From: Amphiscolops sp. MND2022 | Taxonomy: Eukaryota | Assembly: GCA_964187785.1 (NCBI GenBank) | Contig: OZ076421.1 | Location: 35,898,001 to 35,962,000, forward strand | Direction of reading: 5' to 3' | DNA length: 64,000 bases | Shown: positions 85 through 64,000 of the stretch, one piece after another | Layout of the letters: each line of letters starts with the position of its first letter | Position numbering within the stretch: the stretch's first letter is position 1 | Position numbers and translations under genes: made by a program | The notes under the pieces: generated by a model | Told to the model about the DNA's origin: nothing | The model's input: only the letters and a program-made list of their open reading frames with translations | The model's database searches: none

Positions 85-3000
85 CCGAGGCCCGTTCTTG
101 GTCAAAAGAACCACACAAAGGCAGAGGGAGACTAAAGGACGAACAAAAGAGCCTTTTGAAGTTTTTACAACAGCGGATCGAGTAACGCCGTCATCACCGA
201 TGTTCAATTTTTCCACTCAGGCAAGAGGGTAATGACCTTTGGGACTACCGTTATCTACAATCCAAACAAGGGCCGACACAAACGTTACAATTGGAGTCCG
301 AAAACCACTTTTGACGTCGCTGCAACTGTGGAACGTATTCTTGTAACCATCGTTTCCAAATCCAACTCACATGCGACCGGGATTGACGAAAAACACGACG
401 ATGATTTTAATCATCCGGTTGGACTACGCCTACAGGTAAAGCAACTGAAGCTTGACCTAGCAGAAAAAGGTTTGGCGTTAGAGCCTCAAAATCATCAGTG
501 TCACTATTAGCACAAGTAAGAGGACGGGCGTTCGAAACTTGCTCAACAAGGCACATGGTTGTGCTCAAAGTTTCCTCGGTCAACCGACGGGACGAGAGAA
601 TGGCAAACATCGCTTTCTTGCAAGAGCGCACATGTCGCTCCCATGCAACTCCAAAGTGAGGAGAGGAGGGGGATTAAATTTCCATTGGCAAGATCGCTCA
701 GTCAAATAAGATTCGATTACGTCAGTTTCGGAAAGCATTTTGACGAAAGACTTGATCTCGTTAGAAGCCCCAACAAAATTTGTACCATTATCAGAATAGA
801 AGGTGGATGGTAATCCACGGCGCGCCACAAAACGTTGAATCGCTAGGTGACAAGAGTCAGTAGAAAGATTATGGCAAACTTCAAAATGGACGGCTCTAAC
901 AGTTAGGCATGTAAACAGGCAACACCAGCGCTTGTGAGAAGATCTAGCAATTTTTACCTCGAAAGGCCCGAAAAAATCAATTCCAGTAAAAGCGAAGGGA
1001 GCACTGCCGAACCCAAGTCTTTCTGAAGGTAAATTGGAGCGGATATCATTGGAGCACGTTTTGTGCAAAAGACACATTTCAAACGAATTCGACGGAGTTC
1101 ACTACGAAGACCGAGAACCCAGAACAACTGTTGTACAATAGAGCGAAGATATTCCACGCCGTCGTGAGCATTTGAGATATGTACATCATTGAGAAACAGT
1201 TTTACAACCACATGCTTGCTGGACAGAATGACTGGATGTTTTTGCTCGAACGAAAGACAAGACGCTTTTCGCAAGCGACCACGAGCACGTATCAAATCAT
1301 TATTCAGAAATGGGACAAGAAGTGCCAGTTGAGAGTTACGAGGAACATTATCAGAGGAGAGAGACAAAACTTCTTTTGGGAAAGACTCGAGCTCAACTTG
1401 AGACCAAATACATTTTTCAGCTCTCGCGAGATCATCCACAGTTAGAACAGGGGTTGAAGATTTATCACTTTTGTGCTGTGCAGGGCGAATTTTGAGAACG
1501 AAAGCAACGATTCGTTTTAATTTGCGAAATGAAGAGACTTTTCGGAACAAATCGCCGAGAACAAGTTTAGGCAAAGACTTTTCGGAACACACTGGAGAAC
1601 TGGCAACACTGTCAACAAATTGATACTTTTCAGGCCACTTTGACTAATGAAGTTTTATAAAAAAAAGGACCCCGTAACCAGTCAGTGTTTTCAAGGTAAG
1701 ACATTTTGATACCTCTGGTACCAATATCAGCCGGATTAACATGATCAGGAACGAAATCCATCGTTCAACATTGCTACAGTCTATGATTTCTGCCACACGA
1801 TTAGCAACAAAAACAGGGAGCCGTTTGTCAGACGACGAAATCCATTGAAGAGCAGTGGAGCTGCCGCTCCAAAAGAAACAGTTTTGGACACTGAAAGGAA
1901 GAAAGGACTGTATAGATATTGACAATCGCAAGCCAATCACTGCGGCTTGAATTTCAAGTTTGGGAATAGTACTTGCTCGTATAGGAGCAACCCTACATTT
2001 GGCAACGAGAAACGCAACAATTACAGTTTCACACTGAACTGAACGAAGATAAGCAACAGCGCACATTGCTGATTGGGAGGCGTCTACAAAGACATGAAGT
2101 TCATGAGAACAGTCTACAAAGCTTTCATTCAAAATTGATCGCTGTATTTTGAACGTTGAGACAAGAGGCAACTCAGAATTCCAATCCCTGAACAAGCACT
2201 TATTTTTAGCAGGGACAGGCTTGTCCCAAGTTTGCCCGAAAAACTGCCAAAGTTCTTTCAAAATCAAACGACCTCTGATAGTGAAAGTCGAGACAAACCC
2301 TAAAGTGTCGAACACAGACGAAAAAACCGAATTTTACGCTGGGTTATATTTCGGAACCGATTGCAGAAATTCGTCAACATAAAAAGAAGTGAAAACCGCT
2401 TTCGAAGCAACTGGAAAGCTTCTGACATTATCACGAGCTGTCTGTTGAACAACAAAGTTTGCACAATTTGGAGATGTCTTTGCTCCAAAAATGTGCCTGG
2501 TGTATTGAAATGTTTCAATTTCAGACGACGGACCCTCCAGTCACAAAAACCTGAGGAAGCGTTGTTCATATTCTGGGACCTCAACTTGCATGAACATTGC
2601 CTCAATGTCAGCAAAGAGACCAATTTTGAACAACCGAAAACGAAATAGAAGCCCTATCAAGTCGGAAAGCAGATCGGGACCAGGAACAAGGACTTCATTC
2701 AAAGATTTTCCAGCGAAACGTGCTGCAGCATTGCAGACACGACGAAATTCACTAGGTTTGTTGGGATTCACAACGGGGTGATGCGGCAAATACCATTGAG
2801 GCAAGCTATGAGTTGTCTGTACTTCGGTGAACGGAACCTTACGCACATAGCCATTTGCAATGTCATCCTCAATAGATTTGACATAACCAACTTGCAATTC
2901 AGGGTTCTTGCAAAGACGACGTTCAAGAGATAAAAGCTGACTTTTTGCCAAAGAAAATTGTTAGCCAACAGTTTTACATCAGGATCCCACAATAAGCCAA

Positions 3001-3962
3001 CGCAATAGCGTTTTCCAGTAAAGACACAAGTTTTTTTCTAAACATTCGAGAGCTTTCTTATCACTCTTCGAACGAAGATCAACGCTCACAGTTGATGCAT
3101 AAGAGTCGAGGGCCCACCACTTGGAAACTTGTGTTGCTAAATGAAGAACAACTGACTCATCAACGGAAGCACCCGAAGATGCGAAACAACCGCTAGTTTT
3201 TAGAGACTTGCAATTAGGAAGCGGTCCACTCAAGACCCAACCGATTGGAAGTTTGACTGCCCAAGGCAAATGATTATCAGAAGTTTGATATCCAATCGGG
3301 CAAATGGCTGAATAAACATCTTGTACAAGAATGACGCCAATTTTCGAGTAGTCAATAACATCAGCTTTGATAACTTTCGGAAGTGGACATCATGACTTCA
3401 CACTTTTCAAATCAACTTTTTCATCTCCAAGTGACAAACCAGCTCTACCTAAAGCGGAAAATTTCAGAGGGATGAAAGACTTGTCTTCCAAGGAGAAAAG
3501 TTCAAGATTGACACACGATGTGTCACCTTCCAAGGATCCTGTGACCCCACGTACACAAACAGTTTCGCTAGATCCAACTAGACCTAAACAAGACTTTACA
3601 TCTTCGGAAACCCACGAATGGGTGCTACCGGTATCGCATAGAGCCCAAGCTTTGGTGTTCGAACAGCCACTCTTCAATCCTATCTCAATAACCTGCAAAG
3701 CCCCTTTGCGGGCACGAGATACTGTGCAAGATGTAACACCATTCTCATTCTTGGACCCGGAGACCACAGACGAAGAGGAATCATTATGCAACAAACTGTT
3801 ATGTGATTTCCCACAACTACTTTTTGGATAAGCAATCTCGCGCCAAGTGACCAGACTGAAGGCAAGTGAAACAAAGTTGTTTTTCGCAAACCAAGGCGGA
3901 CCTCTGTTTGACGGACTTAGACAAAAACACTGAACATTTCCAGATTCTGTGACTTTCGTCAC
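85..3962 (-). pseudogene. pol: BEL/Pao pol, copy A, including the IN C-terminal (DUF5641-like) tail; 236-bp deletion in RT
   Basis: Same motifs as copy B. Tail 85-330 reads EYVPQLQRRQKWF...LVWIVDNGSPKGHYPLA*VEKLNIGDDGVTRSAVVKT with a frameshift. Private TGG>TGA at ~2541. Confidence 0.93.
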
Positions 3963-6015
3963 ACAGAGTACATTGATCTTTCCTCACAGACGACACTTTA
4001 CTGCTCGAATTTTTGACAACATTGGAAGCGAGCACTTGATGCCTACGCAATTTGTCATTTTTTTCCGATTGGGCAGCATTAGAGGTATTACACATCAGAA
4101 ACCGTTCATGCACTGCGGCTTTCTGCTGCAGCCAATCACGAAAAATAATCAAGTTGACAACCGAATGACGCTCAATAAATCCAAACCAAGATTCACGAAA
4201 ATTAACTAGCAGCTTGGATACAACTGAAGACAAATTGCTGGAAGACTGCAAATCACTGAAAAATTTCTCAGCTGACAATATCGAACCAAAACTGTTCACA
4301 ACTTGAGAAAATTCAATTATTGATGCAGAATTGTGCATTTTCACTTGAGGCTGTTTACTGAGTTTTTCAATTTGTGCCCCGACAATGATATGTGGAGCTC
4401 CGAACCTTTTCTGAAGTGAAGCAAAGGCTTGATCGAAGTGAACGCCCAAGTACCCAAACCCATCAATAGTTGCCTTCGCTTTTCCAGAAGTGAAAAGTTT
4501 CAAATATCTCATGCGATGATCTAATGAAACTGAAGGCTTACAACAAGTGGACGCAAACATTCCTTTCCACTCAGGCCATTTGAGTGGAGCTCCGCTGAAG
4601 ACATCAAGCTCGAACTTTGGAAGAGACTCATGAGCAATTTGACTTTCCAAAAAACTTTGCAGAATGTTCGGAGCAAAATTCGATGAGCTAGGAACAAGAT
4701 AGACAGGAGGTTGCGTAGCAGAGTTAGACACAAAAAGAATTTGAAGATTTGGTTGCTGAGCTAGCCTTCCCCTGTTATTTTTCACTGTGCAGGCTTGAGC
4801 AACCTTGCTAATATTTACATTCGGCTGAACACCGACAGAGGGTTGAGAATTCAAAAGAGAGAAGTTAGAAAAGCTCATTCCACTTATCGGGTGAAGAACG
4901 TTTCCAGTAGAAGCAGTCGGAGCCCTCGAAGGGCCATAAGAAGGCAAAGCTGCTTTGCCATGTGAAACAACTGCTGTAGGCAAAGACCTTAATTGGCTCG
5001 AAGGCAGCACATAAGTACTTTGAAGACTTTTATCAATGTTCGAATGCAAAGTACTGGCAAGAGTCGACTGAAGTTCATTCAAACCAGAAGCTTTGTTGTT
5101 CGAGGGGACTGCTCTATTACCGAGAGTCAAAGCACCAAATGTGCCATCGGCCACACCAGTAGAACCGATCGGCCACTTCGAAAGCGTTAACAGCAACAAA
5201 AGGCAAGCTAGGTCCAACTGAACTATTCACAAACTAAGACTGAGAAGTGACAATATCAACATCGTGCGGCGGTTTCTCGTTCAAATGAGACGTTTGGTGA
5301 AGTGGTTCTTCAACAAGATTTGACTTGGGTTGCAAACGACTAGGCCCAGAGTCAACAGTAGTACTAGGTGGCAAGGAATTGACCCACTCTGAAGTCTTAG
5401 TTCGAACAATATCCTCAACATTACAATCTGGTTCACTAGAGTTCGATTCTATTTCATCCAATTGACACTCGTCTCGATACTTCTGGAGTTGTTGACGCTT
5501 ATATTCTTCTATCTCTAAGTGCTCAACACTAACTTCAGCCTCAAGGATAGCCTTGCGGGCATCAGCTTGGCGCTCTAACTCCTCTTCTTGAAGCTTCAAC
5601 AACATCACATCTTAGAACGTTTGGACAACGTTGACGACTTTTTAGACGACCTACCAGAAGACTGACTAGTGAGTGCTTTATCAACAAGATATTCACGGGC
5701 AGAATCTAAGACAAATCGACAATGATCATTGACTTTGTTAGATCGAGCAGATGCTTCACTAACCACAGCCTCGACATTCGAAGACATCAAAATTTCATTC
5801 ATCCCACTAATTTTTGACTTCAGATCAACACAATCATTGACAAGTCTCGAAACTTTTCTTCGCCTTGCTTGATTTTTCAGAAGTTCCTCCAGTTGCTCAA
5901 GGCGTTCGTACAATTGACCAACAATCTTTTCGCGACCTGCAACATTTTTTTCCATCAGCGAGATTTGCAAAGACATAGGATACTCAAGTGTCCTAATCCA
6001 AACCCAAACAAACAC
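3817..6015 (-). pseudogene. gag: BEL/Pao gag, copy A
   Basis: Near-identical to copy B, offset 6489 bp, same ORF breaks. Confidence 0.9.
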
Positions 6016-6580
6016 GAATAGTTACAATGTAAATAAAGAGAAGAGAACGAATGAAAAAAAACAACACTTGACAGAACCAAGTTTTGAGCTTGCATGTAAG
6101 CTCCAACTGAGTACTTCGTTTTTTCTTTTGAATCAGGAGTCAAAAGGGTAGTAGTGAAGCTTTCAAGTGCAAAGAGGGAAAGTTCGAACAAACGGAAAAC
6201 AAAATTGAATGCAGTGGAGAAACGAAAAACAGCGACACAAAACGACATGAAACGACTTGCCAAAGGTTTACTGTCTATGGATTTAAGTTACGTTTTTTTT
6301 GTGAAAAGAAAGGAACAAATAGCCTCAGCTAACAGGACCAACAAAAAAAGACAAAGACAGCTGCTCCTGAAATTTTTCCCTCCCTTGATTGTTTGAATAG
6401 CTTTGGGCTAAACAGCCAATATATAGTTTTTTGACATAGACTCAGTCGACAGATCGGCTTATGCTTCGGGCTGCAGTGCAGACCGACGACTTGCCCAGGG
6501 ATCCACCTGAGCCTGACCTTTCGCTCAGCGCAGTTGAAGGCTGACGCTCAGTGTCCTTTGTATATGGAGTCATCAAAATA

Positions 6581-9500
6581 TGTGGAACGTATTCTTGTAA
6601 CCATCGTTTCCAAATCCAACTCACATGCGACCGGGATTGACGAAAAACACGACGATGATTTTAATCATCCGGTTGGACTACGCCTACAGGTAAAGCAACT
6701 GAAGCTTGACCTAGCAGAAAAAGGTTTGGCGTTAGAGCCTCAAAATCATCAGTGTCACTATTAGCACAAGTAAGAGGACGGGCGTTCGAAACTTGCTCAA
6801 CAAGGCACATGGTTGTGCTCAAAGTTTCCTCGGTCAACCGACGGGACGAGAGAATGGCAAACATCGCTTTCTTGCAAGAGCGCACATGTCGCTCCCATGC
6901 AACTCCAAAGTGAGGAGAGGAGGGGGATTAAATTTCCATTGGCAAGATCGCTCAGTCAAATAAGATTCGATTACGTCAGTTTCGGAAAGCATTTTGACGA
7001 AAGACTTGATCTCGTTAGAAGCCCCAACAAAATTGGTACCATTATCAGAAAAGAAGGTGGATGGTAATCCACGGCGCGCCACAAAACGTTGAATCGCTAG
7101 GTGACAAGAGTCAGTAGAAAGATTATGGCAAACTTCAAAATGGACGGCTCTAACAGTTAGGCATGTAAACAGGCAACACCAGCGCTTGTGAGGAGATCTA
7201 GCAATTTTTACCTCGAAAGGCCCGAAAAAATCAATTCCAGTAAAAGCGAAGGGAGCACTGCCGAACCCAAGTCTTTCTGGAGGTAAATTGGAGCGGATAT
7301 CGTTGGAGCACGTTTTGTGCAAAAGACTTATTTCAAACGAATTCGACGGAGTTCACTACGAAGACCGAGAACCCAGAACAACTGTTGTACAATAGAGCGA
7401 AGATATTCCACGCCGTCGTGAGCATTTGAGATATGTACATCATTGAGAAACAGTTTTACAACCACATGCTTGCTGGACAGAATGACTGGATGTTTTTGCT
7501 CGAACGAAAGACAAGACGCTTTTCGCAAGCGACCACGAGCACGTATCAAATCATTATTCAGAAATGGGACAAGAAGTGCCAGTTGAGAGTTACTAGGAAC
7601 ATTATCAGAGAAGAGAGACAAAACTTCTTTTGGGAAAGACTCGAGCTCAACTTGAGACCAAATACATTTTTCAGCTCTCGCGAGATCATCCACAGTTAGA
7701 ACAGGGGTTGAAGATTTATCACTTTTGTGCTGTGCAGGGCGAATTTTGAGAACGAAAGCAACGATTCGTTTTAATTTGCGAAATGAAGAGACTTTTCGGA
7801 ACAAATCGCCGAGAACAAGTTTAGGCAAAGACTTTTCGGAACACACTGGAGAACTGGCAACACTGTCAACAAATTGATACTTTTCAGGCCACTTTGACTA
7901 ATGAAGTTTTATAAAAAAAGGACCCCGTAACCAGTCAGTGTTTTCAAGGTAAGACATTTTGATACCTCTGGTACCAATATCAGTCGGATTAACATGATCA
8001 GGAACGAAATCCATCGTTCAACATTGCTACAGTCTATGATTTCTGCCACACGATTAGCAACAAAAACAGGGAGCCGTTTGTCAGACGACGAAATCCATTG
8101 AAGAGCAGTGGAGCTGCCGCTCCAAAAGAAACAGTTTTGGACACTGAAAGGAAGAAAGGACTGTATAGACATTGACAATCGCAAGCCAATCACTGCGGCT
8201 TGAATTTCAAGTTTGGGAATAGTACTTGCTCGTATAGGAGCAACCCTACATTTGGCAACGAGAAACGCAACAATTACAGTTTCACACTGAACTGAACGAA
8301 GATAAGCAACAGCGCACATTGCTGATTGGGAGGTGTCTACAAAGACATGAAGTTCATGAGAACAGTCTACAAAGCTTTCATTCAAAATTGATCGCTGTAT
8401 TTTGAACGTTGAGACAAGAGGCAACTCAGAATTCCAATCACTGAACAAGCACTTATTTTTAGCAGGGACAGGCTTGTCCCAAGTTTGCCCGAAAAACTGC
8501 CAAAGTTCTTTCAAAATCAAACGACCTCTGATAGTGAAAGTCGAGACAAACCCTAAAGTGTCGAACACAGACGAAAAAACCGAATTTTACGCTGGGTTAT
8601 ATTTCGGGGCAAAGAATTCGAGACACCGCAGCAAACATACAAATTATCGTTTTTCAGATCCCATTGAATTCCCAGAATTGTAGTGACTTCCATTTCACTG
8701 AAGGGTTCAGCAAACGTCACGTCTTTTTCCAATGACTTGTAGACTTTCAAACTGTTAGTGACGAACTTAGTCAAATTGAAGCCACCATAAGCCAACATTT
8801 TCAACATTTGACTAGCTAGAAGGACTGCATCACTTTCACACGGAACCGATTGCAGAAATTCGTCAACATAAAAAGAAGTGAAAACCGCTTTCGAAGCAAC
8901 TGGAAAGCTTCTGACATTATCACGAGCTGTCTGTTGAACAACAAAGTTTGCACAATTTGGAGATGTCTTTGCTCCGAAAATGTGCCTGGTGTATTGAAAT
9001 GTTTCAAGTTCAGACGACGGACCCTCCAGCCACAAAAACCTGAGGAAGCGTTGTTCATATTCTGTGACCTCAACGTGCATGAACATTGCCTCAATGTCAG
9101 CAGAGAGACCAATTTTGAACAACCGAAAACGAAATAGAAGCCCTATCAAGTCGGAAAGCAGATCGGGACCAGGAACAAGGACTTCATTCAAAGATTTTCC
9201 AGCGAAACGTGCTGCAGCATTGCAGACACGACGAATTTCACTAGGTTTGTTGGGATTCACAACGGGGTGATGCGGCAAATACCATTGAGGCAAGCTATGA
9301 GTTGTCTGTACTTCGGTGAACGGAACCTTACGCACATAGCCATTTGCAATGTCATCCTCAATAGATTTGACATAACCAACTTGCAATTCAGGGTTCTTGC
9401 AAAGACGACGTTCAAGAGATAAAAGCTGACTTTTTGCCAAAGAAAATTGTTAGCCAACAGTTTTACATCAGGATCCCACAATAAGCCAACGCAATAGCGT

Positions 9501-10451
9501 TTTCCAGTAAAGACACACGTTTTTTTCTAAACATTCGAGAGCTTTCTTATCACTCTTCGAACGAAGATCAACGCTCACAGTTGATGCATAAGAGTCGAGG
9601 GCCCACCACTTAGAAACTTGTGTTGCTAAATGAAGAACAACTGACTCATCAACGGAAGCACCCGAAGATGCGAAACAACCGCTAGTTTTTAGAGACTTGC
9701 AATTGGGAAGCGGTCCACTCAAGACCCAACCGATTGGAAGTTTGACTGCCCAAGGCAAATGATTATCAGAAGTTTGATATCCAATCGGGCAAATGGCTGA
9801 ATAAACATCTTGTACAAGAATGACGCCAATTTTCGAGTAGTCAATAACATCAGCTTTGATAACTTTCGGAAGTGGACATCATGACTTCACACTTTTCAAA
9901 TCAACTTTTTCATCTCCAAGTGACAAACCAGCTCTACCTAAAGCGGAAAATTTCAGAGGGATGAAAGACTTGTCTTCCAAGGAGAAAAGTTCAAGATTGA
10001 CACACGATGTGTCACCTTCCAAGGATCCTGTGACCCCACGTACACAAACAGTTTCGCTAGATCCAACTAGACCTAAACAAGACTTTACATCTTCGGAAAC
10101 CCACGAATGGGTGCTACCGGTATCGCATAGAGCCCAAGCTTTGGTGTTCGAACAGCCACTCTTCAATCCTATCTCAATAACCTGCAAAGCCCCTTTGCGG
10201 GCACGAGATACTGTGCAAGATGTAACACCATTCTCATTCTTGGACCCGGAGACCACAGACGAAGAGGAATCATTATGCAACAAACTGTTATGTGATTTCC
10301 CACAACTACTTTTTGGATAAGCAATCTCGCGCCAAGTGACCAGACTGAAGGCAAGTGAAACAAAGTTGTTTTTCGCAAACCAAGGCGGACCTCTGTTTGA
10401 CGGACTTAGACAAAAACACTGAACATTTCCAGATTCTGTGACTTTCGTCAC
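6581..10451 (-). pseudogene. pol: BEL/Pao pol, copy B (PR, RT, RNase H, IN; broken into several ORFs, 3' truncated)
   Basis: ALCDTGSTHSWV (protease); WYLPHHPVVNPNKP, ADIEAMF, HIFGAKTSP, FYVDEF (RT); ELHVFVDTSQSAMCAVAYLR (RNase H); GIDFFGPF, LFTCLTVRAVHFEV, SDNGTNFVGA (IN). Confidence 0.95.
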
Positions 10452-12504
10452 ACAGAGTACATTGATCTTTCCTCACAGACGACACTTTACTGCTCGAATT
10501 TTTGACAACATTGGAAGCGAGCACTTGATGCCTACGCAATTTGTCATTTTTTTCCGATTGGGCAGCATTAGAGGTATTACACATCAGAAACCGTTCATGC
10601 ACTGCGGCTTTCTGCTGCAGCCAATCACGAAAAATAATCAAGTTGACAACCGAATGACGCTCAATAAATCCAAACCAAGATTCACGAAAATTAACTAGCA
10701 GCTTGGATACAACTGAAGACAAATTGCTGGAAGACTGCAAATCACTGAAAAATTTCTCAGCTGACAATATCGAACCAAAACTGTTCACAACTTGAGAAAA
10801 TTCAATTATTGATGCAGAATTGTGCATTTTCACTTGAGGCTGTTTACTGAGTTTTTCAATTTGTGCCCCGACAATGATATGTGGAGCTCCGAACCTTTTC
10901 TGAAGTGAAGCAAAGGCTTGATCGAAGTGAACGCCCAAGTACCCAAACCCATCAATAGTTGCCTTCGCTTTTCCAGAAGTGAAAAGTTTCAAATATCTCA
11001 TGCGATGATCTAATGAAACTGAAGGCTTACAACAAGTGGACGCAAACATTCCTTTCCACTCAGGCCATTTGAGTGGAGCTCCGCTGAAGACATCAAGCTC
11101 GAACTTTGGAAGAGACTCATGAGCAATTTGACTTTCCAAAAAACTTTGCAGAATGTTCGGAGCAAATTTGGATGAGCTAAGAACAAGATAGACAGGAGGT
11201 TGTGTAGCAGAGTTAGACACAAAAAGAATTTGAAGATTTGGTTGCTGAGCTAGCCTTCGCCTGTTATTTTTCACTGTGCAGGCTTGAGCAACCTTGCTAA
11301 TATTTACATTCGGCTGAGCACCGACAGAGGGTTGAGAATTCAAAAGAGAGAAGTTAGAAAAGCTCATTCCACTTATCGGGTGAAGAACGTTTCCAGTAGA
11401 AGCAGTCGGAGCCCTCGAAGGGCCATAAGAAGGCAAAGCTGCTTTGCCATGTGAAACAACTGCTGTAGGCAAAGACCTTAATTGGCTCGAAGGCAGCACA
11501 TAAGTACTTTGAAGACTTTTATCAATGTTCGAATGCAAAGTACTGGCAAGAGTCGACTGAAGTTCATTCAAACCAGAAGCTTTGTTGTTCGAGGGGACTG
11601 CTCTATTACCGAGAGTCAAAGCACCAAATGTGCCATCGGCCACACCAGTAGAACCGATCGGCCACTTCGAAAGCGTTAACAGCAACAAAAGGCAAGCTAG
11701 GTCCAACTGAACTATTCACAAACGAAGACTGAGAAGTGACAATATCAACATCGTGCGGCGGTTTCTCGTTCAAATGAGACGTTTGGTGAAGTGGTTCTTC
11801 AACAAGATTTGACTTGGGTTGCAAACGACTAGGCCCAGAGTCAACAGTAGTACTAGGTGGCAAGGAATTGACCCACTCTGAAGTCTTAGTTCGAACAATA
11901 TCCTCAACATTACAATCTGGTTCACTAGAGTTCGATTCTATTTCATCCAATTGACACTCGTCTCGATACTTCTGGAGTTGTTGACGCTTATATTCTTCTA
12001 TCTCTAAGTGCTCAACACTAACTTCAGCCTCAAGGATAGCCTTGCGGGCATCAGCTTGGCGCTCTAACTCCTCTTCTTGAAGCTTCAACAACATCACATC
12101 TTAGAACGTTTGGACAACGTTGACGACTTTTTAGACGACCTACCAGAAGACTGACTAGTGAGTGCTTTATCAACAAGATATTCACGGGCAGAATCTAAGA
12201 CAAATCGACAATGATCATTGACTTTGTTAGATCGAGCAGATGCTTCACTAACCACAGCCTCGACATTCGAAGACATCAAAATTTCATTCATCTCACTAAT
12301 TTTTGACTTCAGATCAACACAATCATCGACAAGTCTCGAAACTTTTCTTCGCCTTGCTTGATTTTTCAGAAGTTCCTCCAGTTGCTCAAGGCGTTCGTAC
12401 AATTGACCAACAATCTTTTCGCGACCTGCAACATTTTTTTCCATCAGCGAGATTTGCAAAGACATAGGATACTCAAGTGTCCTAATCCAAACCCAAACAA
12501 ACAC
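10306..12504 (-). pseudogene. gag: BEL/Pao gag, copy B (frameshifted; DUF1759-like region and zinc knuckles)
   Basis: ORFs 12094-12504, 11606-12097, 10306-11706. LPKFELDVFSGAPLKWPEW motif; CTLCDESHRIWKC and CFTCLQSGHLARDC knuckles. Confidence 0.9.
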
Positions 12505-13935
12505 GAATAGTTACAATGTAAATAAAGAGAAGAGAACGAATGAAAAAAAACAACACCTGACAGAACCAAGTTTTGAGCTTGCATGTAAGCTCCAACTGAG
12601 TACTTCGTTTTTTCTTTTGAATCAGGAGTCAAAAGGGTAGTAGTGAAGCTTTCAAGTGCAAAGAGGGAAAGTTCGAACAAACGGAAAACAAAATTGAATG
12701 CAGTGGAGAAACGAAAAACAGCGACACAAAACGACATGAAACGACTTGCCAAAGGTTTACTGTCTATGGATTTAAGTTACGTTTTTTTGTGAAAAGAAAG
12801 GAACAAATAGCCTCAGCTAACATGACCAACAAAAAAAGACAAAGACAGCTGCTCCTGAAATTTTTCCCTCCCTTGATTGTTTGAATAGCTTTGGGCTAAA
12901 CAGCCAATATATAGTTTTTTGACATAGACTCAGTCGACAGATCGGCTTATGCTTCGGGCTGCAGTGCAGACCGACGACTTGCCCAGGGATCCACCTGAGC
13001 CTGACCTTTCGCTCAGCGCAGTTGAAGGCTGACGCTCAGTGTCCTTTGTATATGGAGTCATCAAAATATCGAAGTCAAACCCAAGCTTCAGGAGCAACTA
13101 GTCTACAAGACACGCAAAAGAAACCCAAAAAAGGCAAAAAAATCAAACGTTTTCCAACAAATAAGTTTCAAAGTACCTCTCTAGTCAAAAACGGCTTTTC
13201 AACAAGCATTGTCGGGGTCGAGAAAGAGACAAAAAGTGAAAGAGGGTCTAGGGGGAGTAGCATAAACAAAGTGCGATAAGATACCGCCGATAGGCGGCGT
13301 AATAAATGAAACAAAGCATCAAACGAAACAAAAACTACCACAAAAAACTGTCATAGGGGCAAAACTGCAAAATATAGGCTCGAAAGATTGCAAGCAAAAG
13401 TTTTGTGGAAAAATTGAAGGAGCTGGACAATTTTTTAAAGGCACCAAACTCAAACGTCGATAGAGTTTGAAAAAAAAACATTAGACAAAAGTTAGCACAC
13501 AGCAAAAAAATTCAAAAATATCAATCTGCACAAGCCGCCGTAGGCGTTGCTACACTTTTTGACAAAACGGATTCCATTTTTGGCAAAGAAAACGCTCTAA
13601 CAATGTGTTTTGTTGTAAAACAAGTCACACTACACAGTTTCAGTTTTAACTTAGTTTGTGAATAATCAAACTTCTAAACTCTCGGGAAAACACTGCCGAC
13701 GACAAAGAAGAACCCAGTTCGTCCACTGTCCGCAGGAATCCAAAAACCAAAAGCGATAACTGCTGCAGAGACCTCACTGCATCTGTTGCACAAACCAGAA
13801 GATCGAAAAGACCACTGCACTGTCGAACATCAAGTTGCCATCCATGTGCCAGACCGAAAACCACTGAGAGTAGACCAGCATCACGTCGGCACACACTGAG
13901 AGCAGAGCAACATCAGCCAAGTTGTGGGGGGTGAA

Positions 13936-16729: not shown

Positions 16730-17520
16730 AGTAGGCGCTTTCGAAAAAAGTGCCCGACTCTTACCGTGGTAGTTTATGGTCCACTTTTTTGTTCATTTGT
16801 TCACCATCTAGAACTACGGATGTTCAAAACATACTCGAAACGTCAGAACAAAAAACATACTAAGGATCCCCCTTTGTTTATCTGGGTGTTTTCAACTTGA
16901 AGTTTTTCGGCACTAAGACTTTTTTGAAAACTTTCTAATTGCACCAAAGGGTCCCCCTTCTAATGTTTTGATATTTTGCAACAGAATGGATGTTAAAAAT
17001 CCCAAAGGTCCTGACGTTTTTACATTTTTGACACAATGAGACTGTTCAAAGTTCTCATTTTTTGTCTGATTTAAGGTTTTCTCAATATATATCCACCGAT
17101 AATTTTTTTTCAATATCCGAATTTTGGATATTCAAAAAAATCTTGCGGTATATGAGCATGTTTGACGTTATATTCTAACCTTATTGTGTTTTACTAAGGA
17201 AGAGGTAAAATTATTGTGTTTTTACGTAGATTTGAAAACAAGCGCTCCCATTTGTCCCAGCACGCTATATCCTAACTTTCAACGTTACATCCGACGTAAT
17301 TTGCGTTTTACAGAGCCGTAGGAGTGAGAAAGCGATCGCATTTCTGCCAGCACGCTATATCCGAACTTCTGAAGCGTTTTCCGAGCACTGAAGGTACCCT
17401 TTGGGTGTTTCGAAACTTTTTTGTATCTTTCTCGAAAAAAATCTCTTGAGCATATTTTTTTTAAAATGCCTTTTTGATCCTTAGGTATAGCGCCGATGTG
17501 AGACGTTCTCATCCTGTTTA
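16730..17520 (+). mobile_element. Helentron/DINE-1-like non-autonomous repeat copy (degenerate)
   Basis: Degenerate versions of the family ends and internal AAGGGTCCCCCTTC subrepeats. Confidence 0.5.
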
Positions 17521-17922
17521 GTATGTAACGACATGAAAAATTCGCTTCACAGACGTTTTGAAGTTGTATTCAAAATATCTCAAATCTTGCTAGCAATCAG
17601 ATACGAGTTCGAATTTCACCAATCTTGAACTCTTGTAAAAAGTATAATTCAGCTTCAACTATGGTGTAATCTATCTTATGGTAATTACCATAAGATAGAT
17701 TACACCATAGTTGAAGCTGAATTATACTTTTTACAAGAGTTCAAGTTTGGTGAAATTCGAACTCGTATCTGATTGCTAGCAAGATTTGAGATATTTTGAA
17801 TACAACTTCAAAACGTCTGTGAAGCGAATTTTTCATGTCTTTACATACTAAACAGGATGAGAACGTCTCACATCGGCGCTATACCTAAGGATCAAAAAGG
17901 CATTTTAAAAAAAATATGCTCA
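17447..17922. repeat. Spacerless 476-bp palindrome
   Basis: 238-bp arms centred on GGTAA|TTACC (17684/17685), two mismatches seen. Confidence 0.97.
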
Positions 17923-18197
17923 GGAATGAGCCGGAATGCTAGGTCTTCACAGAAAACAAGACTCCCGCTAACCACCGGATATTTTCCGCTTTCTTCGCCT
18001 TCGCCAACTTAGTCATGGCTATTCTGGGAGGGAAAATACGATTTAAGGTATAAGATCTAAAATTTAGTGATTTTAGATCTTATTCCCTTTAGATATTATT
18101 CCCGTCCTAAAATTAAAGATCTTATTCCTATTTTTGACTTGAGATATTATTCCTCTAAGCTGTTTTAGTTACTTGACTAATTTAGATACTAGTAACT

Positions 18198-58193: not shown

Positions 58194-58368
58194 GTGCGCA
58201 ACTTCTCCGAACGGCTGTTGGACGCCAAGAGCGGGAAACGAACCGAGTTCCACAGTCCTGTGTTCTACACCAGCAGGTTCGGCTACAAAATGACCCTCGT
58301 CCTTTACCCTGACGGCATCGGGTCAGCCAAGGGGTCCCACATCTCCATATTCCTCAAAATACTCAGAG
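58194..58368 (+). CDS. TRAF MATH (TRAF-C) domain exon (phase 0-1)
   Basis: AG/GTGAGT bounded. VRNFSERLLDAKSGKRTEFHSPVFYTSRFGYKMTLVLYPDGIGSAKGSHISIFLKILR(G): canonical SPxFYT-x2-GYK and G-x-G-x-H-x-S-x-F motifs. Confidence 0.92.
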
Positions 58369-58405
58369 GTGAGTTGTCATTTGCCAATTTGTCCCTTGGT
58401 CGCAA

Positions 58406-58633: not shown

Positions 58634-60308
58634 TGTCGCACGCATGGGTGAAATTTGTTTATTAGTTTTAATCTGTCAAGTCCTTGTTTGCATTTTACAA
58701 GGTACTATCTCGCGACGGTTCTGTTATTGATTTAACAAGTATAAGTCCCAACAAATAAATTTGCAACTTACTGATAAGGGGGTGCCTTGCGTGTACGTGC
58801 GAACAAAAGAAATTGCGTGAGTCGCGCAAGGCGGTGTTTGTAAATGAGCTTCCCGTTTACTGAAAATGTATGGTGAATAAATATGTTTAATTACGAATGA
58901 GTTGAGAATATTGAAAGTGAACAATTTCTGGACATAGCAACATTTCTTTCAATTGTTACAAATCTCAGATTAATAAAGATTACAACTTCACTTTACAAGA
59001 AGAAGTAATATAACTTTTACAATTTATCATTTAAGAAAATGAAACTATTCACAAATAATAAGAATTTCCCTTTTTCTTCGGAAATCTTTTTCTCAAACAA
59101 AATTTACAAATCCGTACTATTTTAAACGGAAGAGTTTTGATTTAGATGTCTCTATTCAGTAGAAAGTTGAATAGCATTAAGACTTTTTCATAATATGACA
59201 CTTTAAAACTTCAATCATCCCTTTTCTTATGTGAGTTTATGTAACTTCAACCTCATAGAAATTTAGTTCTAATAAGAATAGTCTAAGCTAAAGTTTGGTC
59301 AACCGCAGAATTGAAATCAGCGGAAAATAGTCTAAGGTAAGATTTTGTCAACCGCAGAATTGAAATCAGCGGAAAATAGTCTAAGTTAAGATTTTGTCAA
59401 CCGCAGAATTGAAATCAGCGGAAAATAGTCTAAGTTAAGATTTTGTCAACCGCAGAATTGAAATCAGCGGAAAATAGTCTAAGGTAAGATTTTGTCAACC
59501 GCAGAATTGAAATCAGCGGAAAATAGTCTAAGTTAAAGTCTCAGAGAGAGTGAAATCTCTACTGAAAGGTCTAAATAGTCAGACTCACCAAACCGGAGAC
59601 GAAATTGAAGAGAAATTTCTAAGTTAGAAATTTCGTGTAAGGGAAGATTGGTTCTGGAAGTTGAAGTTAAATCAAAGATGAGTGGAGAAATATTCTAAGA
59701 TGCAAGGGTATGATTAGAAGAGAATTATTGGATCTGAGTTATTAAGCAAGAAGTTTTGTTGAGTTAAATAGCAATCGAAATTGAAAGTGAAGGCGAGAAA
59801 TAGACTTTCTAAGTCTGAAGGGGAAGATAATAGTAAAGGGAGAGGAAAGGGGGTAAAGTAAGAAAGAAGAGCAGGGGTGAGGGGAGAGAAGTGGAAGAGA
59901 AGTGAAGAGAAACGAGAGCTTTTAAGTTTAAGCTCTGTCCGTTTCAATAAGTGTCTGAATCTCCTCGCCTGCGTTGGCCGTATATATACAGCCAAGCATT
60001 TCTTATCGTGCGCTGCGTAGCAGGCATGGCTTATCTTTCACCAATCATAGTTGGTTTCATATTTCAAATATACGCGGTATAATATAGAATTCTTCACTTG
60101 TGCAATTCCTTTCTCGTCACAGTACTTCATCATCATTATTACCATCGTTATGGCCGCCGCCTTATGGCCGCCATCTTCATCTACAACTTTCTCCCCCAAG
60201 AAACAAACGTTAGTTCTAGTTCATGTTTGTTTCTTTATTTGTTAATTAAATATAAACTGCACTTTAGCACCTAATTATGTTTGTTAAAGCGTTAGTCATA
60301 ACGCGACA
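58634..60308 (-). repeat. 3' LTR of element 3 (1675 bp)
   Basis: 6-bp inverted termini, TATA-like TATATATA at 59981-59988, preceded on the minus strand by GGGGGGTGAGC. Confidence 0.85.
59277..59540 (+). repeat. 49-bp tandem repeat x5 inside the LTR
   Basis: AATAG at 59277, 59326, 59375, 59424, 59473, 59522. Confidence 0.95.
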
Positions 60309-60345: not shown

Positions 60346-60813
60346 TTATGGGTCAGACTGAAAGAAGGGGGAGTTATGTAGCGCGAGTGACTGAGGGGAA
60401 GGTTCCTTAAATTTGATTCTAAATATTATAGAGTCATTGTTTAAGAAGGCTTCTCTGAAGTTGACCAAAAGTTTTGTTTGGGGGATGAAATCTTCTCGCG
60501 TGAGGTGAGGAAGGGTTTAAGCGCTGATGTTGGTGTCATCTAGGTAGGTCTTGTCAGAGTTGTTTGGGAAGTAGGTAGACCACTTATTGTTTCTGTCCTT
60601 TTGATCTATGATGGAGATTTCCACTTGTCGGTCGAAAGGCCATGCTCGAGGGAGGGTGAAGTTGTTTGGGTAGATTCGTAGTTGTTCATCAAAGTGTAGA
60701 TAGTCTTCTAAGATTGGATTAAGGGTGTCGTCGTCCAGGTTTGGTATGTAGAATAATAGGTTGCAATTAGTAAAAGTGAAACATTGTTTAGATTGTTTAG
60801 ATTGGAGTAACAA
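60346..60813 (-). pseudogene. Second MATH/TRAF-like ORF remnant in element 3 (one in-frame stop at 60517)
   Basis: LRIYPN...AWPFDRQVEISIIDQ...then past the stop REDFIPQTKLLVNFREAFLNNDSIIFRIKFK. Confidence 0.65.
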
Positions 60814-60852: not shown

Positions 60853-61570
60853 CTACTCGCTCATTTTCATCTTCCATTTTGATCTTTTTTTTTCGATGTG
60901 AGCCGTGGAGGGTACACTGAGTTCGCTGGAAAACTTATGAAGGGCATTCATTGATGCTGCGCTAATGAGGATGCTGGACCAAATATCAGATAGTTGTTTG
61001 GGGTGTACATTCTTGTATATTGTTATCCAGGGGAGGACCTGGTAATCATAGGCTGGATGTCTTTTGTTCCGAAGAAAGCTGGTAGGTCCCAATTTTCGGG
61101 TGACAGTATAAGTGTAAACCAGGAATCTTTGTCTTTCAAGTTTTTCCTTGGAAGAGGTTCTTGGCGCAATTCAGTGAAGTTCGCACGTTCGTATAACGAT
61201 AGGTTTTGCTGGTAAATGGGTTCACGAAAGCAACTACTTTTTTGTAGAAGATAGGGATGCGTTCGCATCATTAATTCATTGTGTGAAGGAGTGAGACGGG
61301 TTTCAGACAGTGTTGAAGCCAAGCAAGGCTTCCATCAGTGTTTGGGGACTTAGTTCGTGCCCCGTGAGCAAGTATCCGGCAAGTCTGCCTTTACCCATTA
61401 TTTCGGGTGACTTGATTCATCTCGTAGAGTTTATTTTGGGTCATTTCGCCGCAGTCGAAATGAGTTACTCGCAGTTTTTTAGCAACGCTAGCGAGGTTTG
61501 GCGTTGGACGTTGTAATATCACAACGGGCGCGTAATGGGCGCATAAAAAGAGTAAGTAAAATAATTTCAT
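60853..61570 (-). pseudogene. env: Decayed, internally deleted env-like glycoprotein gene
   Basis: MKLFYLLFLCAHYAPVVIL signal peptide, then VTHFDCGEMTQNKLYEMNQV; fragments GRLAGYLLTG, DGSLAWLQHC, ERIPIFY, DSWFTL, IWSSILISAASMNALHKFSSEL across frames. Confidence 0.55.
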
Positions 61571-61628
61571 TTCTGAAATTCTTCAGTCTTTGACAATCAA
61601 TCAGGAAAAATGTTTTTTATAGATATGT

Positions 61629-62242
61629 GGATCCACGGTAAGGCCGTAAAAAGGCAAGCCGTAATATCAAACCGGCAGCTTAGCTGGCACGACACTAAGC
61701 GGAGGTTAAAATTTTATAGTAGTAACCTCACTACTATTGGAAAGTGCCTTATGGAAAGATTGTTGTTTTTTGTTTAAAGTATAGGTTTCGGAGTAAGGCC
61801 GTAAAAAGGCAAGCCGTAATATCAAACCGGCAGCTTAGCTGGTACAACACTAAGCGGAGGTTAAAATTTTATAGTAGTAACCTCACTACTGTTCACACGT
61901 ACCTAAGAGAAGGAGAAGTTTATTTGTCTTTTAGTTTAGTTTAATGTTATGGATCCTGAAATAAGGCCGTAAAAAGGCAAGCCGTAATATCAAACCGGCA
62001 GCTTAGCTGGCACGACACTAAGCGGAGGTTAAAATTTTATAGTAGTAACCTCACTACTGTTCAAATGTGCCTAAGAGGTATATAAGTCTAGTTGTTTCTT
62101 TGTTTTGTTCAAGATTGTGGATCCGTAATAAGGCCGTAAAAAGGCAAGTCGTAATATCAAACCGACAGCTTAGTGGGCACTAACACTAAGCGGAGGTTAA
62201 AATTTTATAGTAGTAACCTCACTACTGTTAAAAAGTGCCTAA
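61629..62242. ncRNA. Four-unit array of a conserved ~98-nt putatively structured RNA module with divergent spacers
   Basis: Cores start at 61639, 61794, 61962, 62129; three internal hairpins; compensatory pair in copy 4. Confidence 0.55.
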
Positions 62243-62659
62243 ATGGAAATGTGAAAGAAACTAACTTCAACTATTTGTGAAGGTTCAACTGTAACTGTCG
62301 CTGATTGATTGTAGACTGGGAGAGAGTTTGTTTCTTCTTCTCGAATCAATGAAGTCGATTAGTTTGTTGAGAAGGAAAAGTGCTAACTGAGGTCATGTTG
62401 ACCGAGGATAACCCAAAGTTCTGGTTGGTGTAGCCCGAAGCTGTGAATTTCTACATGAATTATTGCAGCCTTTTTTTTTTAGACAATGGAGAGAATTACA
62501 AGAATTGTCTTTCTTTGTTGTCTATATAGTAAACTAAGTCTAAGTATTCTAGGAAGACCGGTGGGTCCAGGTTGTCTGCTTAAAATTTTGCTATCAGAGG
62601 ATTGCCCAGAAGAAAGGGTCCGAGAAAGTACCAAAGACTATTGAGGGTAGAAATGTATC

Positions 62660-63555
62660 TTACGGAGCTGGGGGTGAGAAGCGTTTGATAAGAATGCCGA
62701 AAGAGACGATATTGTCTTTAGCTAGAGTAGCGTTGAAAATAGTGAGGGGCAGGAAGTCTTTGATTCCACCTTCGATGCTATTTCCAGAAGGCGTTAATTT
62801 GAAGCTTCGGTGCAGTGACTGTCCGTTTTTGTTCTTGAAGTTTTTGTAAAATAGCCGTACAATGAGGGGGGTGGAGAGAGGTTTGTGGTCAGGGTCTCGG
62901 ATTGCAACGAAAATAGATACAAATTTATTAGTTTCTTGTTTGGAACATCCATTCCAATAAATTTTGACTGTTGCTATGAGGGGTGGCAATTCGAGAGGTT
63001 GCAAATCAAGGGGTCCTGTGGTAGCCCAGTGGTAATAGCTTCTGTGAAACGGGTGTGGCAGCCCGGCTGTTCTCAGATGTGTAACAACGATTTGGTCCAG
63101 TTTGATAAGTACCATTCCACCTCTTGTAGACACCTTTGTAAGTATTGGAGGTGATAGAGTTATTTGGGGGTCGTCATGGAGTATGAGAGTGTTTGACGTT
63201 GTTGACATCTTCAGAGTTGGGTCTTTGGGAAAATTGTTCAGGGGAGCTATTTTTGTATAGCAAGTGGTTGTATTTTGGTTTGAAGTAGTGTCTCAATGCC
63301 AGGTGGTTGGGAGGTTGACGGTTGACCAGGAGAGGTGGGCGTCAGAAACTGCTGGTTTTCCGGTGAGGTGATACCTGAGTCTGGGCGGTGAGGGCTTCGT
63401 GCTCTATTGCTGATGAGTATCTCGGAAATGTGCGTTTTCCCTGGTAACGTTGTAACATATTGTGGCAAACAAAGAAACAAAGTAGAGATTGAAATCAGAG
63501 TGAGTAAGTAGTTAACCCTAACTTCAACGAGTAGGGATTCCAACTGATTGCTCAT
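62660..63555 (-). CDS. Element 3 ORF-A: hydrophobic leader, P/S/T linker, divergent MATH domain (two ORFs, fused by +1 A in an A5 run near 63250)
   Basis: 63247-63555 (NYLLTLISISTLFLCLPQYV) plus 62660-63208 (GGMVLIKLDQ...VKIYWNG...FVSIFVAI...GGIKDFLPL...LAKDNIVSFGILI). Confidence 0.65.
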
Positions 63556-63569
63556 TTACTGAAGAAACT

Positions 63570-63587
63570 GCCTCACTAGTCGCACCA
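63570..63587 (-). promoter_or_regulatory. 18-nt PBS of element 3 (elongator tRNA-Met-like)
   Basis: TGGTGCGACTAGTGAGGC, 3 nt from the LTR. Complement GCCTCAC-TAGTCGC-A-CCA fits tRNA positions 59-76 with the GCCTCAC T-stem seen in elongator Met tRNAs. Confidence 0.7.
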
Positions 63588-64000
63588 GTTTGTCGCACGC
63601 ATGGGTGAAATTTGTTTATTAGTTTTAATCTGTCAAGTCCTTGTTTGCATTTTACAAGGTACTATCTCGCGACGGTTCTGTTATTGATTTAACAAGTATA
63701 AGTCCCAACAAATAAATTTGCAACTTACTGATAAGGGGGTGCCTTGCGTGTACGTGCGAACAAAAGAAATTGCGTGAGTCGCGCAAGGCGGTGTTTGTAA
63801 ATGAGCTTCCCGTTTACTGAAAATGTATGGTGAATAAATATGTTTAATTACGAATGAGTTGAGAATATTGAAAGTGAACAATTTCTGGACATAGCAACAT
63901 TTCTTTCAATTGTTACAAATCTCAGATTAATAAAGATTACAACTTCACTTTACAAGAAGAAGTAATATAACTTTTACAATTTATCATTTAAGAAAATGAA

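Follow-up and report, generated by a model that had tools for sequence, protein, structure and literature searches.

A young gypsy derivative with a single open gene

The window analysed here is a 64,000-nucleotide stretch of contig OZ076421.1 from Amphiscolops sp. MND2022 (assembly GCA_964187785.1, positions 35,898,001 to 35,962,000 of the forward strand). It carries, on the reverse strand, an LTR element with the features typical of Ty3/gypsy elements, i.e. a TG...CA LTR pair, a target duplication and a tRNA primer-binding site (Table 1). Given that the LTR pair shows one mismatch over 1675 aligned bases and that a 4-bp target duplication (GTAT) is found at both flanks, the insertion appears to be very recent. 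The tRNA-Met(CAT) gene of the host that corresponds to the primer-binding site was called by ARAGORN at one of three loci. Gag and the pol domains in the order protease-RT-RNase H-integrase, which are found in autonomous relatives, have been deleted from this copy, and what is left between the LTRs is a series of remnants and one unbroken gene (henceforth referred to as MATH1). The host TRAF-like gene is split around the element, one exon lying at 58248-58373 and another at about 66677 (beyond the window). That a MATH-carrying element should be found inside an intron of a host TRAF-like gene is probably a coincidence.

Table 1. Features of the LTR element and of the adjoining host gene, in window coordinates.
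Feature	Position	Strand	Remarks
LTR element	58634-65412	(-)	very young non-autonomous gypsy derivative; extends beyond the window
5' LTR	63591..64000 in the window, continues to 65412	(-)	1822 nt
Primer-binding site, tRNA-Met(CAT)	63570..63587	(-)	18 nt; matches the 3' end of a host tRNA
ORF0 remnant (leader frame codons 1-37)	63445..63555	(-)	from the 56-aa hydrophobic uORF of autonomous elements
Remnant of pol C-terminal tail (P/S/T-rich "linker")	63247..63444	(-)	joined in frame to the ORF0 remnant
MATH1, intact 182-aa gene with its own ATG	62660..63208	(-)	only unbroken gene left in the element
Broken remnant of the 117-aa accessory ORF of the autonomous family	62288..62544	(-)	
Structured repeat of ~110 nt, four copies, upstream of env	61636..62242	(-)	common to autonomous relatives
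env remnant	60898..61582	(-)	PF24664 fusion glycoprotein; codons 1-62 and 405-571 left, with frameshifts and stops
3' remnant of a second, TRAF-type MATH gene	60349..60696	(-)	gene sits after env in autonomous elements
3' LTR	58634..60308	(-)	1675 nt
Exon of host TRAF-like gene	58248..58373	(+)	element is antisense in the next intron

The repeats of ~110 nt are present before env in two to five tandem copies (window, L081, L111, L113 and L115) and fit a pseudoknot plus two hairpins. In this model, a structure picked by eye from the same sequences on which it was scored, 97% of cells were paired and 7 of 22 pairs had changed on both sides, a result matched by none of 500 shuffles. The fold of a single copy was not better than shuffles (z -0.62) and no match to Rfam was obtained.

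Fold and affinities of MATH1

A preliminary description of the locus had recognized five MATH-like strand motifs and proposed that an LTR element carries a MATH domain. All five motifs are present in the 182-aa frame (63208-62660), and structural comparisons support the proposal. A model predicted from an alignment of 14 natural copies had a pLDDT of 88.6 and a pTM of 0.84, while a single sequence as input yielded a pLDDT of 40.7 only. Foldseek placed TRAF3 first for this model (E 2.6e-7), and in a VIA search of 48,161 chains all eight matches with Z>=10 were of the MATH/TRAF type, namely TRAF1 (top, Z 12.5), TRAF3, TRAF6, SPOP (2), USP7 (2) and meprin. Siah (Z 7.5) and the first unrelated fold (Z 6.2) came below this set. 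The top cluster in the Atlas was also MATH (0.90) and the top BFVD matches were iridovirus TRAFs (E 5e-7). The predicted fold of MATH1 is, then, the MATH beta-sandwich.

The resemblance in sequence is far weaker than that in structure. The 210-aa MATH1 frame did not match any Pfam profile at E<=10, and the trimmed domain matched MATH_2 (PF22486) with an E of 0.0084 and 16.8 bits, well under the curated cut-off of 32. Curated cut-offs of PF22486, PF00917 and PF21355 were not reached by MATH1 and PDB sequence searches with it returned no MATH match; MATH profiles were matched by 5 of 14 members of the family (best E 5.8e-5). Identity to known MATH/TRAF structures was 8–17%, and hhalign gave a probability of 6.5% for MATH1 against the TRAF-type domain of the element itself. 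Since MATH1 has neither a coiled coil nor the W-P-F motif (the ORF is nearly all domain, and the W-P invariant in the element's TRAF-type gene is missing), it is best seen, on the predicted model, as a derived stand-alone MATH domain and not as a canonical TRAF. The family has an N-terminal motif of its own (P-x-L-T...R...M), as well as an invariant Lys and Gly in strands of the putative peptide groove, which we take to be the strands lining the groove in TRAF structures. No N-terminal hydrophobic segment was found in the 182-aa product by Kyte-Doolittle hydropathy, and this product is likely to be cytosolic.

Relatives of MATH1 numbered 21 among 1.84 billion protein representatives and 46 in a second protein search, and in viral contigs none of 18 pattern matches could be confirmed as a relative. 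Within the assembly, six apparently single-copy chromosomal genes (L084-L088 and L096, at C5:39.8-41.8 Mb and C6:33.0 Mb) are of the MATH1 type and 29–48% identical to it, which makes them candidates for the donor family. In phylogenetic trees the element copies form one clade (support 100/99) next to L084/L085 (90/89 and 94/93), with an alternative placement not rejected by the AU test (p 0.10). Capture of MATH1 from a host family is likely on these relationships. A Maverick origin of L096 was considered and discarded, as the gene is single-copy and lies 1.7 kb outside the Maverick end. The gene had also been described as intronless, unlike the host TRAF gene, and as such retro-captured. The frame is indeed free of introns and the host gene is split; as evidence for retro-capture this is weak, because the nearest chromosomal relatives also have the entire domain in one open frame and the host TRAF belongs to another MATH subfamily. 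More distant MATH1-type genes (about 26% identical) were found in each of the ~4-kb arms of inverted-repeat elements (L089-L098), which have a TRAF-type gene in the middle. An arm ORF of these elements has an H-Y-H motif reminiscent of HUH endonucleases.

Copies, autonomous relatives and the sequence before MATH1

The genome contains at least 40 copies of the derivative (40 scored of 95 candidates), with 77–100% identity and two alleles of MATH1 among them. The MATH ATG is retained in all 38 copies scored for it, and a MATH1 frame of 181–184 aa in 14 of 18 young, 7 of 12 middle and 2 of 8 old copies. Decay after insertion is about neutral, so any selection would act on transposing lineages and not on single loci. 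A gag or pol core was found in none of 25 derivative loci of 10 kb.

Autonomous elements have a separate gag, a pol of ~1850 aa and then an env of ~716 aa. Three of them (L081-L083) carry a MATH1-type ORF of 176 aa, 52% identical, that has its own ATG, lies between pol and env and is preceded in all three by an acceptor-like pyrimidine tract just 5' of the ATG. Their pol has the gypsy order protease-RT-RNase H-integrase and their env is a PF24664 fusion glycoprotein; the assignment to gypsy follows from this domain order and from LTR features. The "gag position" in which MATH1 had been placed is consequently not its native site but the product of a deletion. None of the autonomous carriers found exceeded 52% identity, and MATH1 was absent from all ten other autonomous copies of related families. 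The second, TRAF-type gene follows env in every one of the 12 autonomous copies that were read at the 3' end (the ten related-family copies, without MATH1, and two of the L081 type), e.g. L102:3-620, L104 and the odd-numbered L109-L127, and the genome has at least 150 matches to PF21355. The N-terminus of the TRAF-type gene contains a PAM2-like motif in L111, L113, L115 and L117. Three to five small ORFs without a Pfam match lie between pol and env in L081 (2578-6413), L109, L113 and L119.

The window element is nearest to the L112/L113 family (LTR 89–96% and env start 94% identical). One chimera, L039, combines the non-autonomous core with an env, the next ORF and a TRAF-type gene 99% identical to those of L113. 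From this we infer that the derivative has a mosaic make-up, renewed from helper families; L039 is a direct example.

Upstream of MATH1, an ATG at 63555, 15 nt past the primer-binding site (63587-63570), opens a 102-aa leader frame, which comprises a hydrophobic and a P/S/T-rich section and ends in a TAG at 63247 after an A-run, all as previously described. Residues 1-37 of the leader align with a 56-aa uORF of autonomous elements and residues 37-96 with the C-terminal tail of pol, and on these alignments the leader is a deletion joint of the two. The pol-tail remnant ends 39 nt 5' of the MATH ATG, in another frame. The hydrophobicity of the ORF0 remnant (leader codons 1-37) is 1.75 against 2.6–2.8 for intact ORF0. 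The 56-aa hydrophobic uORF itself follows the primer-binding site in several autonomous families (L101:5809-5979, L112, L114 and L116). With a divergence between families of 0.41/0.21/0.64 over the three codon positions, it probably encodes a real small membrane protein.

Leader and MATH1 had been read as a single gene of ~298 aa for a membrane-anchored or secreted MATH protein, a proposal that the other copies largely refute. In 32 of 37 mapped copies the leader and MATH ATGs lie in different frames, and a meprin-like in-frame signal or transmembrane segment is accordingly missing; among the five with both in frame only L020 is open through (299 aa; the sole such copy among 30 read, and alone among 38 in being open through). 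This natural copy would nevertheless speak for a fusion that was recently broken or is made by -1 ribosomal frameshifting, as would the offset between the leader and MATH frames, of the -1 type in 29 of 37 copies, and the MATH frame being open for 28–29 codons upstream of its ATG in most allele-1 copies. Set against these are the descent of leader and linker from two other genes, a stop before MATH that the window shares with 17 of the 18 youngest copies, the lack of significant constraint on the leader (see below) and a pol-tail frame that stops at least about 25 codons before the ATG in six of seven scored allele-2 copies. Programmed frameshifting was rejected, given that only 5 of 47 copies have a slippery heptamer, that the 18 youngest all lack it and that no stimulatory structure lies downstream. 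We therefore give the fusion hardly any chance of being correct.

Selection on MATH1 and its possible role

The dN/dS of MATH1 between the two alleles is 0.12–0.15, and it is 0.17 against the autonomous gene, a comparison in which dS is saturated. Two pairs cover the leader as well, with 0.63 and 0.69 for the leader, which shows no significant constraint (shared-variant test p=0.14), versus 0.12 and 0.14 for the MATH part. Between alleles 1 and 2 there are 65 synonymous and 37 non-synonymous differences, as against 80:224 for singletons (p=4e-11). Within allele 1 (36 copies; L021 and L025 excluded), shared variants number 21:23 (synonymous to non-synonymous) versus 76:211 (p=0.007), and off-frame controls gave p=1.0 and 0.34. 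Removal of variants matching allele 2 left 12:13 versus 59:204 (p=0.0075), and with CpG sites also removed p was 0.056. One control frame, in a broken remnant, gave p=0.049; p was 0.37 for the young versus the middle subfamily and 0.14 within allele 2. All ten young copies examined have two or three frameshifts and two or three stops in 151 env codons, as well as three or four frameshifts in the next remnant (rough counts, with references only 70–74% identical), and none in MATH1. Breaks in MATH1 elsewhere are at private positions, except for one stop in the neighbours L024/L025 and in L100 and another in L026 and L080.

The preliminary description had held that the MATH frame stayed almost open while env decayed, and that this suggested selection. 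The shared breaks of env agree with the former, and the latter is in keeping with a dN/dS that is not near 1 and with a shared-variant signal (p=0.007) that weakens to p=0.056 under the strictest filter. Taken together, the data support codon-level purifying selection on the 182-aa frame. Part of this signal may predate the deletion. Third positions of the MATH block differ by 0.40 between alleles and the flanks mostly by 0.11–0.21, and 48 comparisons yielded no convincing source for the 100 nt 5' of the MATH ATG (the best was 1/200 shuffles, for one copy). Since the block is more diverged than its surroundings and the spacer unmatched, the deep signal could be due to exchange of the cassette with unseen autonomous donors.

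MATH domains bind short peptides, and the MATH domain of TRAFs signals only together with a coiled coil and a RING, so a bare MATH domain would be expected to compete for partners. We consider it fairly probable that this gypsy deletion derivative keeps an intact stand-alone MATH1 as a cytosolic decoy that damps host TRAF/MATH signalling. In such a scenario, an env-bearing gypsy element would have taken MATH1 from the lineage-restricted chromosomal family, and a deletion of gag-pol would have brought the gene near the primer-binding site. The derivative would then move by means of the gag-pol of the L112/L113 family, with which it would exchange LTRs and 3' parts. Translation of MATH1 would start at its own ATG, reached by splicing or re-initiation, and would not yield a fusion; the two ATGs between the primer-binding site and the MATH ATG count against translation from the latter. 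Having neither RING nor coiled coil, the product could bind partners without signalling, as a peptide-binding decoy in immune, cell-death or ubiquitin pathways of cells with an active element, and so favour lineages that retain it. There is some precedent for a role in signalling, as the cargo of the planarian Burro elements has been tied to apoptosis and ubiquitination (PMC6431247) and an iridovirus TRAF binds TRADD (PMC3352826). The viral TRAF promotes apoptosis and does not block it, which counts against a decoy, as does the absence of MATH1 from 10 of 10 other autonomous copies. We also infer that a trans-acting product is hard to select within a multi-copy family.

Decoy activity remains the most likely explanation among those considered. 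Next comes the possibility, to which we assign roughly one chance in four, that MATH1 is a passenger whose selection was limited to autonomous donors, either extinct or not represented in the assembly, from which it was repeatedly brought in by template switching; it would now be drifting, and still intact because its masters are recent. The greater divergence of the MATH block than of its flanks fits this well, and so do the 5' spacer that matches no autonomous sequence, mosaic copies such as L039, the existence of an autonomous-type variant (P0049) with no match above 63% in the assembly, and the flat divergence over codon positions among allele-1 copies. Drift of a passenger is harder to reconcile with allele-1 shared variants that are still rich in synonymous changes once those matching allele 2 are left out, with the distance to the closest autonomous carrier, only 52% identical, and with adjoining remnants that acquired shared breaks where MATH1 acquired none. 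More doubtful still is a function as an adaptor for the element, MATH1 binding proteins of the element or its helper (the TRAF-type product or the env tail) or shielding them from ubiquitin-dependent turnover. MATH1-type and TRAF-type genes do occur together in the L081 gypsy family and in the unrelated inverted-repeat elements, and two substrate adaptors, SPOP and USP7, are among the most similar folds; against this, most autonomous families lack MATH1, and the TRAF-type gene and env of the window copy are both broken. The fusion with the leader ranks last.

A broader version of the decoy reading is speculative, and we regard it as rather unlikely as a whole. Here a satellite-like element without gag, pol or env would persist by supplying a host-derived MATH decoy under selection, while most of its helpers have none, and MATH1 and the TRAF-type gene would form a two-gene anti-signalling module, acquired in the same genome by the env-bearing gypsy clade and by an unrelated inverted-repeat element. 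Accessory genes of env-bearing retroelements of invertebrates have seldom been linked to a host pathway, and here a whole clade has TRAF-type genes. If selection does act in the non-autonomous lineage, a defective element pays its way through a signalling modulator, and the partners of MATH1 would indicate the host pathway that limits such elements. As a small single-domain protein, MATH1 lends itself readily to expression and testing.

MATH/TRAF cargo in gypsy elements is already known from the planarian giant elements Burro/GYPSM1, which carry MATH_TRAF_C (as a separate accessory ORF in Dugesia tigrina) and resemble the elements described here in their gypsy LTRs and mononegavirus-like env (PMC6431247). 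In Burro, MATH lies in or upstream of a polyprotein of ~5000 aa with BIR, BCL2 and ankyrin domains (PMC6431247). Whereas the giant Burro polyprotein has env placed between gag and pol, env comes after pol in the elements described here. Two separate MATH genes, from different subfamilies, are found in them (one between pol and env, the other after env), and a derivative without gag-pol retains one of the two as its sole intact gene. TRAF1/2/3/6, SPOP, USP7 and meprin share the beta-sandwich with MATH1 (Z 10–12.5 over 125–141 residues), which differs from them in having no coiled coil, RING, BTB or protease partner and only 8–17% identity. ISKNV ORF111L is likewise a TRAF-fold protein of a mobile genome, though the viral TRAFs are recognisable TRAF homologues of large DNA viruses (PMC3352826) and MATH1 is highly derived. 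Anakin Pao elements, with a chuvirus glycoprotein, share the Monjiviricetes-type PF24664 env (PMC7642597); the present elements differ in their gypsy-type pol order with a 4-bp target duplication and in their MATH genes. A literature search that covered few subscription papers retrieved Burro as the only precedent of MATH in LTR elements, with neither a report of the MATH1 family nor a non-autonomous element retaining such a gene. The novelty lies in a divergent MATH family that has no coiled coil and is retained as the sole intact gene.

Elsewhere in the window, other long direct repeats lie about 6.3 kb apart (327-13069), and a perfect palindrome of 241 nt is found at 17444-17925.
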